From Octopus vulgaris (taxonomy: Eukaryota), in contig OX597821.1 in assembly GCA_951406725.2 (NCBI GenBank), positions 79,236,001 to 79,300,000 of the forward strand: a DNA stretch of 64,000 bases, given 5' to 3'. The translations under genes and the position numbers were made by a program. How positions within the stretch are numbered: position 1 is the first letter of the stretch; each line of letters begins with the position of its first letter. This document shows, piece by piece, positions 940 through 31,650 of this stretch. The notes beneath the pieces were generated by a model that was not told the origin of the DNA, made no database searches, and saw only the letters and a list, made by a program, of their open reading frames with translations.

Positions 940-1011
940 AGTGTGTGTAAACTGGACAGATTTCGGAAGATATCGGCTTTGATTGCTGTAATATCATTTG
1001 AACTTAAATTC
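940..1011 (-). CDS. LRR exon 14 (family A), [23 protein letters not shown](L)
   Basis: 72 nt, AG...GTAAGT, phase 2-2. Confidence 0.9.
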
Positions 1012-29717: not shown

Positions 29718-31650
29718 CGTATATTCACCATCTGCAGATATACGGATTTCTGTTTAATTCACATCATATCAAATGTGTACAGAAGTGGGTGAAGTCGATT
29801 GAATGGATTGAATATAGTATTGGACTATTTTAGTTAAAAGGGACACTTGAAATGATTAATACAATATAATCTTTTCTACTCTAGGCACATGGCCCGAAGT
29901 TTTTGTGGAGGGTGCTAGTCGATTAGATCGACCCTAGTACGCAACTGGTACTTAATTCATCGACCCCGAAAGGATGAAAGGCAAAGTCGACCTCTGTGGA
30001 ATTTGAATTCAGAACGGATTAATGCAATATAATGCAAATCATTTAATGTGAAATAATACTCAGGAAGAGTTGAACCCATTCTTTACAACCATGGTTATTT
30101 ATTTCAGCTGAACTAGGAGAGACCGATCAGCTAAAACTTTAGTTAAACTTAAATCATTTTGTAAGCTTATAACTAATGTTTTTATTTCTAAAAAGGTATC
30201 GGGTTTATGATATCAACCTAAATGTTACCGCTGACATCCTTAATAAAAATAAGTTTCATAAGCCGTGCATAGCGGACTATTTCACATTCCTCATTTACAT
30301 AATTGAAGAGTCAGGCAATTTAAGCAGATCTCGTAATTATCAGCAGTTTAATTAGTCTAACAGTATCATATTTAATCGTAAACATAATATAGACATGCAA
30401 TAATTAACTGTCGTTCTATTACGAAATCAACTGTAACTATAAACATCTTCAATTTTGGCAAAAATGTTGCGAAATGCAGCATCCTGACACCAACCCAACT
30501 CCAACAGTCAAGCCAGCAGCTGAGAAACCGCGGGCCAGTCCAGCAAGCCAACTTACTTAGAGGGAAAGAAGTGGTAGAACCCTGCCGGATGTCTTGCGTG
30601 ATATCGTTCTTCGTCGCCCTGTTCACTAGTCACATCGCATCTTTTCACAGAATGTCTTCGTTACGAAATTCACACTGACTCTTCACCTCCCTGACACCTG
30701 CCTTCACACCAACTGTTCACATCGCCAACCTTTCTCCGACTGTGTTCGTTACCAACTTGACACGGAATGTAGTTCCCCGTCACCTGATCTGGGATCAACT
30801 GCTCACATTGCTTAATCTTCACATCACCTGACTCTCACCTGCAACCCTATTCAAATCTCAGCTCTCTTCGCTCAACTCTTCATATCACCCTAACTTCACA
30901 ACACCTAACTCTTCACTTACCCAACTCAATCGTCAACTGACCGACAGCACGCATTCCATCACCAAATTGTTCCCCCTACAGTAAAAACGTACACAGAAAC
31001 ATGTAACATGTTTTAAATCAATCACGTGGTCATGAACATTATTTCTCATTAGAATGAATTATAATTCATTATTAGTTTTCTTTTGTAGAACTTGAGAACA
31101 GTATTTTGATTCCCAGTAGTACCATTTAAAATTATATTTATCAGAATATTTCTTCCATTTTATACTTTCCTTCATCACAACAATATATGCGACACGCTTA
31201 GCTAATACTCAGAGTTTTAATACTTCCTGTTCCCTGAATATTGCCATGAGGAATTTTGATGTAATGTTGGTTCAGATATTGGTCTCTTCAATATTGTAAA
31301 TTTTAGACTCCCATTGAGTCAACATGTGCAGAGAAACAATCTACTTTTACTCCAACATAATATGGTTGAAAACTGAGGTCAACAACATAAGATATTAGTT
31401 AAGAACATAACCAACGAGAATTTAAAATACTGAATGTGGAAAATATGTGGAAAACGTCTAATACTTACAAACTTTGAACATTCGGTGGAATGGGTTGTGG
31501 GACCGAAGTCAGTCCCCGAGACGAACAATCTATAGTTGTCTTAGAATATTCACATTTGCATATGCTGCAAATGTCTGAAGCAGCATGAGACTCCAAAAAT
31601 GGTCTCATAAAGAGTAGCAACACAAAAGTTAATTTCAAATGATAAAACAT
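940..31650 (-). CDS. Multi-exon extracellular LRR protein gene (signal peptide + LRRNT + at least 14 typical 24-aa LRRs); 3' part lies beyond the left edge of the window
   Basis: 15 exons with canonical AG/GT boundaries splice in frame without stops: [397 protein letters not shown]. Confidence 0.9.
2002..2073 (-). CDS. LRR exon 13 (family B), [23 protein letters not shown](L)
   Basis: 72 nt, AG...GTAAGT, phase 2-2. Confidence 0.9.
3073..3144 (-). CDS. LRR exon 12 (family A), [23 protein letters not shown](L)
   Basis: 72 nt, AG...GTAAGT, phase 2-2. Confidence 0.9.
4168..4239 (-). CDS. LRR exon 11 (family A), [23 protein letters not shown](L)
   Basis: 72 nt, AG...GTAAGT, phase 2-2. Confidence 0.9.
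4884..5470 (+). mobile_element. Small non-coding Penelope-pLTR-like element with inverted 5' segment and hammerhead motif
   Basis: About 4884-4976 is the reverse complement of about 5181-5273; the body is similar along its length to 47280-47715. Confidence 0.65.
5158..5241 (+). ncRNA. Type I hammerhead ribozyme-like motif (long, imperfect stem II)
   Basis: ACTGTA-CTGAAGA-[55 nt]-GAAA-CGCG-TA-TACAGT; stem I ACTGTA/TACAGT; palindromic stem III ACGCGT as in Penelope minimal hammerheads. Confidence 0.6.
5814..5858 (+). ncRNA. Minimal type I hammerhead ribozyme in the 5' pLTR (variant core CCGAAGA)
   Basis: TGAAC-CCGAAGA-T TGCA gaattcaa TGCA T-GAAA-GTAC-TA-GTTCA. Confidence 0.75.
6062..7353 (+). 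pseudogene. Penelope upstream basic ORF1-like region, with one apparent frameshift near 6160
   Basis: ATG 6062 frame ([20 protein letters not shown]...) stops at about 6170 but continues in the adjacent frame (LYLKEIEKQ...) into ORF 6250..7353, which is K/R-rich. Confidence 0.6.
7260..9587 (+). CDS. Penelope RT + Cys-rich linker + GIY-YIG endonuclease ORF (open from 7260; first ATG at 7677)
   Basis: [98 protein letters not shown]; no stop from 7260 to 9587. Confidence 0.95.
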   Translation, partial: PEKNLFFYVRTTNTGERKNPRGNIPQTTERIDPKIINLSKRDLDNDEIQLLSKGLKFTPTPTANHQELKEDIQKFCRKLRLVEFFANKSNEIDESLVRNKSDFTPPKGRNNYLDQYIDILSKFPLRRNTNVRPNISKSEMSACKRIQNDQTIIIKQADKGGAIVIMDTEYYKDLVEDQLKDTTFYCEIPANIDHHIMKKINNLISTHHNSLTDNEKDYITNFEPKPSNFYGLPKIHKSKNIQQAVKEQESEYVKLLHPKDLKLRPIIAGPACPTHRLSNFIDIVLKPLCTHIPSFIRDDIDFLSHLPKTTETNSVLLSFDVVSLYTNIPHDLGIKAIKYWLEKHREVIPSRFTVPFILDTVTLILENNTFFFNGKNYIQIRGTAMGTRFAPVYANSVMGYLEEQLYQEVEVNYGTGFRKYIEKAWKRYLDDCFIIWTESLNTLEEFNILLNNLHPSLQFTKEMSSTKLPFLDIMVIKKDTTITTDIYYKHTDTHQYLNFKSCHLPHTKRNIPYCLARRICTIVEDANIRNKRLIELREFLLKQKYPSLLIENGIQRAIKIPIQQLRTTQGRGKQEQIIPFIVTHNPCHQNIFNIAKANLPIIAQSNELKDIITDRAMVLSKRQPKNLKTLLTKAKFDLSNKDQTFTVSKCNDSRCGTCQFIHTGQYINTKTGKIFTNANMNCKSRNLIYCIKCPNCKEIYVGQTGNALLERSRVHRQQIRDPEVRQIPLSNHLATCGRKIYIIFPFYKLHSPSEIERKIREKNFIDKFEPKLNKQ
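10083..10127 (+). ncRNA. Minimal type I hammerhead ribozyme in the 3' pLTR (variant core CCGAAGA)
   Basis: TGAAC-CCGAAGA-T TGCA gaattcaa TGCA C-GAAA-GTAC-TA-GTTCA. Confidence 0.75.
10694..11108 (+). mobile_element. tRNA-derived SINE, family 1 (internal TA/TG microsatellite, GAAA tail)
   Basis: A-box TGGCTGTGTGG and B-box GGTTCAGTCCC; near-identical copy at 35022-35447 (minus). Confidence 0.9.
11131..11202 (-). CDS. LRR exon 10 (family A), [23 protein letters not shown](I)
   Basis: 72 nt, AG...GTAAGT, phase 2-2. Confidence 0.9.
12192..12263 (-). CDS. LRR exon 9 (family A), [23 protein letters not shown](L)
   Basis: 72 nt, AG...GTAAGT, phase 2-2. Confidence 0.9.
13433..13504 (-). CDS. LRR exon 8 (family A), [23 protein letters not shown](L)
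   Basis: 72 nt, AG...GTAAGT, phase 2-2; visible in ORF 13429..13623. Confidence 0.9.
13875..14112 (+). mobile_element. tRNA-derived SINE, family 2
   Basis: GAGCTGGCAGA...GAGTTCAAATTCCGCCGAGGTCGAC; copies at 52764 and 57515. Confidence 0.85.
14328..14560. mobile_element. Small fold-back insertion with 14-bp target site duplication
   Basis: Hairpin 14326-14489; GATATGTTTACATC at 14314-14327 and 14561-14574; single copy of that motif in the paralogous intron at about 23217. Confidence 0.7.
15400..15471 (-). CDS. LRR exon 7 (family A), [23 protein letters not shown](L)
   Basis: 72 nt, AG...GTAAGT, phase 2-2. Confidence 0.9.
15760..15831 (-). CDS. LRR exon 6 (family B), [23 protein letters not shown](L)
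   Basis: 72 nt, AG...GTAAGT, phase 2-2. Confidence 0.9.
15940..17900 (+). repeat. Large compound (GAA)n/(GGA)n/(GTA)n microsatellite tracts in LRR introns
   Basis: Direct observation; similar tracts at 2470-2630, 11570-11740, 12850-12970, 14680-14915, 20730-21290 and 23340-23780. Confidence 0.95.
17021..17092 (-). CDS. LRR exon 5 (family B), [23 protein letters not shown](I)
   Basis: 72 nt, AG acceptor, variant donor GTACGT, phase 2-2. Confidence 0.85.
18124..18195 (-). CDS. LRR exon 4 (family B), [23 protein letters not shown](L)
   Basis: 72 nt, AG...GTAAGT, phase 2-2. Confidence 0.9.
18725..20295 (+). mobile_element. 5'-truncated, decayed LINE with RT end, RNase H and C-terminal zinc knuckle (I/Ingi-like group)
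   Basis: NDDVAV...[46 protein letters not shown] (RNase H); [19 protein letters not shown]; ends in an (AAC/CAG)n tail. Confidence 0.85.
20609..20680 (-). CDS. LRR exon 3 (family B), [23 protein letters not shown](L)
   Basis: 72 nt, AG...GTAAGT, phase 2-2. Confidence 0.9.
21957..22028 (-). CDS. LRR exon 2 (family B), [23 protein letters not shown](L)
   Basis: 72 nt, AG...GTAAGT, phase 2-2. Confidence 0.9.
22594..22665 (-). CDS. LRR exon 1 (family A), [23 protein letters not shown](L)
   Basis: 72 nt, AG...GTAAGT, phase 2-2. Confidence 0.9.
24760..26230 (-). mobile_element. Heavily decayed CR1/Jockey-like LINE RT remnant
   Basis: Minus strand [10 protein letters not shown] near 25400-25430 and degenerate [10 protein letters not shown] (GVPQGS-like); boundaries approximate. 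Confidence 0.55.
26760..27090 (+). mobile_element. Possible RTE-like LINE 3' remnant
   Basis: Degenerate [10 protein letters not shown](W) motif resembling RTE RxRGRPRxxW, followed by a short GCAA-type tail. Confidence 0.35.
27443..28336 (+). mobile_element. Internally deleted mariner DNA transposon
   Basis: TA-flanked imperfect TIRs (CGAAGG...CCTCG); N-terminal [16 protein letters not shown]...VYGWFPRF...[10 protein letters not shown]-terminus [14 protein letters not shown]; most of the catalytic core is missing. Confidence 0.85.
29872..30016 (-). mobile_element. SINE family 2-related fragment
   Basis: Reverse complement of GTTCTGAATTCAAATTCC...GTCGACTTTGCCTTTCATCCTTTCGGGGTCGA. Confidence 0.75.
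31469..31650 (-). CDS. First coding exon of the LRR gene: signal peptide + LRRNT cap
   Basis: ATG at 31650; hydrophobic leader; CSICKC...[16 protein letters not shown] is a classic LRRNT motif; phase-2 donor TT|GTAAGT at 31468; upstream acceptor TCTTTTACAG at 31671 implies a further 5' UTR exon. Confidence 0.9.

Follow-up and report, generated by a model that had tools for sequence, protein, structure and literature searches.

A leucine-rich repeat exon array in Octopus vulgaris likely belongs to a 50-cassette adhesion G-protein-coupled receptor gene

We analysed a 64,000-nucleotide window of the Octopus vulgaris genome (2.8 Gb), positions 79,236,001 to 79,300,000 of contig OX597821.1 (C8 below), whose minus strand carries a signal-peptide exon followed by 14 exons of 72 nucleotides (nt), each encoding one leucine-rich repeat (LRR). 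With about 300 kb to the left of the window added, these exons, called cassettes here, are the first 14 of 50; the LRR array and a seven-transmembrane (7TM) region farther left are likely parts of one gene of about 306 kb, predicted from exon order and phase to encode an adhesion G-protein-coupled receptor (aGPCR). An earlier note on the window had described an array of 14 interchangeable cassettes, a count that holds for the window and falls short of the complete array.

The exon array and the gene around it

A profile seeded with 12 minus-strand 72-nt exons from a motif scan found 14 minus-strand sites in the 64-kb window, at 72-143 bits (against -53 for the best other site, and -57 or less on the plus strand); the two cassettes outside the seed scored 88 and 72 bits. 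All 14 exons are 72 nt long, flanked by AG and GT, in phase 2-2 and free of stops, and the signal exon contains an LRRNT domain (Pfam E 1.4e-6), which bears out the earlier description of a signal-peptide/LRRNT exon followed by intact cassettes. The exons end in CT (12) or AT (two) and start with A (12) or G (two), so that the residue at a junction is Leu, Ile or Met; because this applies at any junction and every cassette is in phase 2-2, every subset of cassettes stays in frame, as had been proposed. An acceptor just upstream of 31670 implies an additional, earlier 5' exon. Window positions, all on the minus strand, are as follows.

31469..31650, minus: signal-peptide/LRRNT exon, coding part; ATG at 31650, phase-2 end; Pfam LRRNT; identical in O. 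sinensis model P0016
22594..22665, minus: LRR cassette 1 of 50; profile; equals P0016 repeat 1
21957..22028, minus: LRR cassette 2; profile; matches P0016
20609..20680, minus: LRR cassette 3; profile; matches P0016
18124..18195, minus: LRR cassette 4; profile; matches P0016
17021..17092, minus: LRR cassette 5; profile; matches P0016
15760..15831, minus: LRR cassette 6; profile; Pfam LRR_8 E 8e-5, under the curated cut-off
15400..15471, minus: LRR cassette 7; profile
13433..13504, minus: LRR cassette 8; profile
12192..12263, minus: LRR cassette 9; profile; Pfam LRR_8 E 5e-5, under the curated cut-off
11131..11202, minus: LRR cassette 10; profile
4168..4239, minus: LRR cassette 11; profile
3073..3144, minus: LRR cassette 12, first of a period-3 higher-order repeat (cassettes 12-31); profile
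2002..2073, minus: LRR cassette 13; profile; joined to cassette 14 in 4/4 runs
940..1011, minus: LRR cassette 14; profile; joined to cassette 15 in 4/4 runs; the gene runs on leftwards

The cassette exons are 46-83% identical in pairs (mean 64%), and homology extends moderately into their flanks (35 of 91 upstream and 49 of 91 downstream pairs lie above the shuffled maximum, the best being 78-80% identical). These values support expansion by duplication of exon plus intron, as the earlier note had suggested for a cephalopod recognition receptor. Its further claim that the expansion is recent survives in part: the homology is there, but the window part of the array is not very recent and is stable between close species, because the O. 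sinensis model P0016 shares the signal exon as well as cassettes 1-5, with neither their sequences nor their order changed.

Most cassette introns (window 11568-23776) contain long (AAG)n and (GGA)n tracts of up to 692 bp on the same strand, which could act as seeds of unequal crossing-over. The intron between cassettes 10 and 11 holds a Penelope-like element with an intact 775-residue open reading frame (ORF) encoding reverse transcriptase and GIY-YIG (window 7260-9584, plus strand, with 6154-7350 upstream); it is a young insertion, given that its flanking 353-bp direct repeats (about 5644-5996 and 9913-10265) are 99.4% identical. Fragments of the long interspersed element type, with RNase H or zf-RVT matches, lie at window 19482-19982, 32018-32455 and 33401-33967.

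The full array comprises 50 intact cassettes, 49 of them 72 nt and the other 69 nt long, and no additional, decayed cassette turned up when this gene was scanned at a low threshold. The order along the one strand is signal-LRRNT-50 LRR-LRRCT-LU-8x(SEA+HormR)-GAIN-GPS-7TM, with a stop near C8:78,961,700; after LRRCT come two exons for a cysteine-rich domain of the three-finger (LU) type, eight five-exon modules, four exons of the GAIN region, a GPS exon and the 7TM exons. The GPS exon is matched by Pfam at E 1.6e-15 and has the HL|T cleavage motif. Of the 7TM exons, two match Pfam 7tm_2 at E 8e-12 and 8e-6, a third reaches 0.02 and a fourth gives none. The four GAIN exons were recognized by their alignment with the GAIN region of paralogs, where Pfam reports GAIN in P0014 at E 7e-6 (26.0 bits against a cut-off of 26.5) and residues 195-643 of a paralog match ADGRG2; among solved structures, a paralog is matched best by ADGRG2 (E 3e-52) and ADGRG6 (E 6e-51). 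Pfam applied to single LRRCT, SEA, HormR or GAIN exons gave no match, and to LU just E 0.21. No GAIN, GPS or 7TM exon is broken or out of phase; scans for long ORFs did not detect the gene because its exons are short. With a GPS, a class B2 7TM and a GAIN region, the gene is likely an aGPCR rather than a variable lymphocyte receptor (VLR), a Toll-like receptor (TLR) or an LGR. The leftward extension that the earlier note had recommended did reveal an LRRCT and a transmembrane region, but LU, SEA/HormR and GAIN follow the LRRCT, not TIR, and the analogy with VLRs and TLRs fails at the carboxyl terminus, where an aGPCR body succeeds the LRRs.

We read the LRR array and the 7TM as one gene because a signal-exon search found just one signal exon between them and because paralog models are single chains (four annotated Octopus proteins have LRR, GPS and 7TM in one chain). 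Exon phases chain throughout, except at the last exon of SEA+HormR module 1, and the gene would have about 105 coding exons and 3,385 residues if the base missing from that exon is an error. The SEA+HormR modules constitute a second in-frame array of eight, each in phase 1-1 (C8:79,024,270-79,094,563); modules 2-7 are units of 7.5-8.2 kb that are 97-99.6% identical and hence very recent, which makes this array a candidate copy-number polymorphism. We also took a structure model of the middle region of paralog P0011 (23 sequences, pLDDT 71). Its residues 7-94 resemble LU proteins (Lypd1, Z 7.5, root mean square deviation [rmsd] 3.7 over 80 aligned residues; Prod1, Z 7.4, rmsd 2.8 over 70), and its residues 96-263 resemble SEA+HormR of Gpr126 (6v55; Z 8.2, rmsd 10.1 over 141). 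The ESM Atlas returned no usable match.

Several points count against this assembly of the gene. The last exon of module 1 has 100 nt where six sister copies have 101, and the frame is broken as assembled (the missing base falls in a run of C, C8:79,080,420-79,080,519, and is an assembly error or an allele). In public O. sinensis annotation the locus appears as two separate models, P0016 with the LRRs and P0005 with the 7TM. The link from array to 7TM is drawn from exon phases and paralogs, the RNA contigs covering cassettes 11-17 alone. The Z-scores of the P0011 folds (7.4-8.2) are middling and equalled by unrelated ferredoxin-like folds, and Foldseek found no match at E <= 0.001.

The receptor family, its cassettes and their selection

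Searches of the genome with the signal exon, the LRRCT exon and the large 7TM exon gave, respectively, 50 matches among 77 candidates, 59 among 64, and 79 among 115 (51 of them with E <= 1e-28). The genome contains about 50-59 relatives of the 50-cassette gene, concentrated on contigs C29, C30 and C31. When the LRRCT-LU-SEA-HormR region was used in a protein search, of a kind that depends on shared words, 38 of 780 candidates matched, 37 of them from Octopus. One-to-one orthology with a conserved developmental LRR gene, the outcome that the earlier note had set against its own proposal, did not emerge from the genome and protein searches. An octopus-specific aGPCR expansion, group 3, was described by Ritschard et al. 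2019 (PMC6408891), and A0A0L8FLR8 and A0A0L8FKK5, cluster members of our matches P0044 and P0051, are listed as class B group 3 in its supplement; by sequence, our gene likely belongs to this expansion.

A convergent paralog stands tail to tail with the gene (C8:78,936,244-78,943,300 and 78,895,610). In the 7TM region the two agree at 93-94% of DNA positions over 2-3 kb and at 99% of protein positions, whereas the LRRCT of the paralog is just 77% identical, suggesting either conversion or that the 3' end was recently duplicated in inverted orientation. An 18-cassette paralog (C29:13,395,770-13,443,469), for which no large 7TM exon was matched before the next family gene, is possibly secreted or truncated, or its 7TM was missed by the search. 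A separate cluster at C9:28.42-28.84 Mb, in which about 20 weak matches to the 7TM, at 31-34% identity, fall in long open frames, is probably another, intron-poor class-B GPCR expansion.

Cassettes were counted in 11 of the 50-59 paralogs, picked by signal-to-LRRCT span and mostly close relatives. Together with the gene described here, the 12 genes have 3, 4, 5, 7, 9, 13, 13, 18, 22, 30, 37 and 50 cassettes, so that copy number does vary, as had been predicted. Nine of 161 cassettes in the 11 paralogs are broken (by splice-site loss, frameshift or truncation), against none of 50 in this gene; three further flagged paralog rows are 69-nt exons read off register and are not counted as broken. 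Cassettes 12-31 repeat with period 3 (identity 0.82-0.85 at lags 3, 6, 9 and 12, versus 0.62-0.64 elsewhere), and the best match lies inside the gene itself for 36 of its 50 cassettes. We conclude from these two results that arrays grow mainly within each gene by block duplication, for which we infer unequal crossing-over as the cause. The other 14 cassettes find their best match in one of seven paralogs, and are mostly a 3' block collinear with paralog C29_15.07. In the paralog at C10:6,792,088-6,805,736 the terminal-type cassette is present twice through duplication of a two-cassette block.

We evaluated selection by dN/dS on disjoint pairs of cassettes 78-99.5% identical, excluding terminal-type, duplicate, broken and 69-nt cassettes. 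Position classes follow the familiar LRR consensus for the concave face and were fixed after the entropy table had been seen. Across all 12 genes (68 disjoint pairs) concave dN/dS is 2.5-3.2 and core dN/dS 0.2-0.5, in agreement with the diversifying LRR receptor that the earlier note had put forward. Eight genes (47 pairs) give a concave value of 1.8-2.7. Four genes fetched after the classes were fixed (19 pairs) give 5.6-7.0 (confidence interval 3.1-14.7), with 56 non-synonymous to 3 synonymous concave changes; inner positions alone give 4.1-5.2, core positions 0.4-0.5 and other positions 0.4-0.5. In the 50-cassette gene (18 pairs), core dN/dS is 0.21-0.35 and overall dN/dS 0.6-1.0. The binding face is therefore under strong selection across the family, but only weakly so in this gene. 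The paralog at C29:14,860,000-14,890,200, with runs of cassettes that combine a near-invariant backbone with varying concave positions, is the clearest case. In a model of P0016 the beta-strand takes one residue from the end of a cassette, the residue at the junction and one from the start of the following cassette; since the strand spans the cassette boundary, the concave strand straddles the splice junction.

Splicing of the cassettes

The signal exon is partly present in 20 of 24 runs. Four of these 20, from four studies, were aligned to cassettes 11-17. None of the runs is on record as RNA; we treated the four as such because the joins in their contigs fall at GT-AG sites and the introns, repeats aside, have no cover. 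Four of the six possible consecutive joints were seen, all at the predicted sites: 13 to 14, 14 to 15 and 15 to 16 in all four runs, and 16 to 17 in three. No skipping joint was present among cassettes 13-17 in the contigs of the four runs, contigs being a form of assembly that drops rare forms. Joints 11 to 12 and 12 to 13 were unseen, with cassette 12 uncovered and cassette 11 represented by one 31-nt piece in one run, a gap from which nothing can be concluded; a loose end of 11 nt in front of cassette 13 matches the end of cassette 12 and of several sister cassettes alike. In-order inclusion is the main form among the cassettes tested.

Other joints were considered and set aside. Two loose ends enter LRR exons outside the 50, one of them a near match to cassette 3 of C29_15.07, and an exact peptide search placed neither exon in this gene or the 11 paralog regions; we read them as paralog transcripts rather than as shuffling. 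Two non-canonical joints with sides of 21-23 nt lie within intron repeats. In a Dscam-type array one exon of the array enters each transcript; such mutually exclusive splicing is excluded for cassettes 13-17, where single contigs hold three or four consecutive cassettes.

Annotated paralogs include isoforms lacking exactly one 24-residue repeat (five models of one O. sinensis gene, three of an O. bimaculoides gene and two of another O. sinensis gene), and one O. vulgaris isoform pair differs by 72 residues; the other paralog isoforms compared differ just at their ends or in the SEA region. These isoform models are predictions. Minor single-cassette skipping is plausible. A broader role for splicing, in which cells use different cassette subsets and one gene yields many ectodomains after the manner of Dscam or ROCO genes, is in our view unlikely. 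It would be favoured by the in-frame subsets with their hydrophobic junction residue, by the isoforms just listed, and by the alternative splicing reported for brown-algal ROCO genes of like exon form (PMC11378527). But the four canonical joints seen among cassettes 13-17 are all consecutive, each in three or four of the four runs; the annotated variants are predicted and almost all single skips, three of them deleting near-identical repeats prone to mis-mapping; and splice sites are near consensus in all 50 cassettes. The proposal that exon skipping is the main source of variety thus finds no backing in the joints of the four runs or in the conserved order of cassettes 1-5 in P0016.

Interpretation and comparison with known systems

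We regard it as fairly probable that the 14 exons are cassettes 1-14 of 50 in what is likely a single aGPCR gene of about 306 kb, and that this gene likely forms part of an inherited receptor repertoire that recognizes fast-changing ligands from outside. Germline arrays would grow and shrink by unequal crossing-over of one-, two- and three-cassette blocks, gain and loss being tolerated because each cassette is in phase 2-2. Most transcripts would include the cassettes in their order along the gene and so encode a single long solenoid, now and then with one cassette skipped, and gain and loss of in-frame cassettes would give solenoids of differing length and surface. Every cassette gained, lost or skipped would create a new chimeric binding strand, because the splice junction lies within the beta-strand predicted for the concave face. 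The long SEA+HormR stalk would hold the solenoid away from the membrane and, by analogy with ADGRG6 and ADGRG2, ligand or force acting on the ectodomain would expose a tethered agonist after GPS self-cleavage and so activate the 7TM.

The most likely ligand is a non-self one, microbial or environmental, met at barrier and sensory surfaces, because the family bears an arms-race signature and because its members are reported to be expressed in skin, sucker and gill (PMC6408891). [quoted passage not shown] Three things speak against such a role: the concave dN/dS of this gene is only 1.07-1.68 over its 18 pairs, with an interval that includes 1 at kappa 1; all our dN/dS estimates are pairwise, and gene conversion can distort them; and group-3 genes of O. 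bimaculoides peak in the axial nerve cord, which fits a neural function (PMC6408891).

That function would be a code for cell adhesion, in which the family supplies surface identities for the wiring of arm nerves, complements protocadherins and binds self ligands; we consider it improbable. LRR, LU and aGPCR modules are common in wiring proteins. Cassette birth and death and concave dN/dS of up to 5-7, however, are more readily explained by an arms race than by a fixed self code. PMC6408891 reports the axial nerve cord peak and proposes the wiring role, but two family members traced to its table peak in skin (0.71) and in testes/sucker (0.27/0.22), and C. minor members peak in gill. That the array is instead runaway tandem duplication in a decaying or split gene, outside any working receptor, is very improbable: the frameshift of 1 nt in module 1, the near-identity (97-99.6%) of modules 2-7, the overall dN/dS of 0.6-1.0 and the split public models would suit it, but all 50 cassettes are intact despite flank divergence of 20-30%, core dN/dS is 0.21-0.35, cassettes are spliced in four studies, the exons from GAIN to 7TM are undamaged and keep phase, and module 1, like its sisters in phase 1-1, could be skipped in frame.

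The inherited receptor repertoire that we favour can be set beside several known systems. VLRs have the order signal-LRRNT-LRRn-LRRCT, 24-residue repeats and variable concave residues, are assembled somatically from non-exonic flanking cassettes and have no 7TM; the octopus cassettes are ordinary spliced exons of a germline gene, followed by a 7TM. TLRs place a single transmembrane segment and TIR after LRRCT, unlike the LU, SEA/HormR, GAIN and 7TM found here. LGRs share an LRR ectodomain on a GPCR, but have a class-A 7TM (7tm_1), no GPS and a fixed repeat number, whereas the octopus gene has 7tm_2 and GPS. ADGRA1-3 likewise join an LRR ectodomain to a GPCR; ADGRA2/3 have few LRRs plus Ig, in fixed number. 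ADGRG6/GPR126 and ADGRG2 share the order SEA-HormR-GAIN-GPS-7TM (for ADGRG6 see PMC6954182). ADGRG6 starts with CUB and PTX where the octopus gene has LRRNT-LRRn-LRRCT-LU, and both are single conserved genes, whereas in octopus SEA+HormR is repeated eight times within a large, fast-evolving family.

Brown-algal ROCO genes consist of homologous 72-bp phase-2 exon modules, with up to 49 LRRs, positive selection on the concave face and splice variants, and the same source notes phase-2 one-LRR exons in gonadotropin receptors (PMC11378527). The octopus family shares the 72-nt phase-2 modules in variable number and, family-wide, the concave selection (weak in this gene). ROCO proteins carry a ROC-COR GTPase, whereas the octopus LRRs sit outside a GPCR and the downstream exons are not ROC-COR; we infer that the resemblance is likely convergent.

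Within a literature search outside which most subscription papers lay, only PMC6408891 was found on these octopus receptors. Its group-3 members are alike in having GPS and adhesion 7TM, with LRR in some (one is a Death-domain member); it counts 21-22 group-3 sequences, five with LRR, against the 50-59 or so loci in this genome, lists one LRR-bearing squid member and reports finding no positively selected sites. The portions of its main text that were consulted give no account of one-LRR-per-exon arrays, of 3-50 cassettes, or of LU or SEA domains. The family is known; its cassette dynamics and architecture were not found described in the literature searched. The public models break the locus into pieces, which may explain why it was overlooked.

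A more ambitious reading, to which we give little though not negligible credence, is a two-tier anticipatory system: some 50 aGPCRs whose LRR solenoids are rebuilt in the germline from cassettes under binding-face selection, with cell-by-cell skipping and copy number differing between individuals as a further tier. If it were true, it would amount to a VLR-like repertoire wired directly to G-protein signalling. For the aGPCR field, a predicted receptor of about 3,400 residues with 50 LRRs, LU and eight SEA+HormR modules is an unusual architecture. The family offers about 50 candidate receptors through which cephalopods, lacking antibodies, might recognize a diversity of microbes or surface chemistry, with a measurable signature of ligand-driven selection, modular exons and a built-in signalling output.

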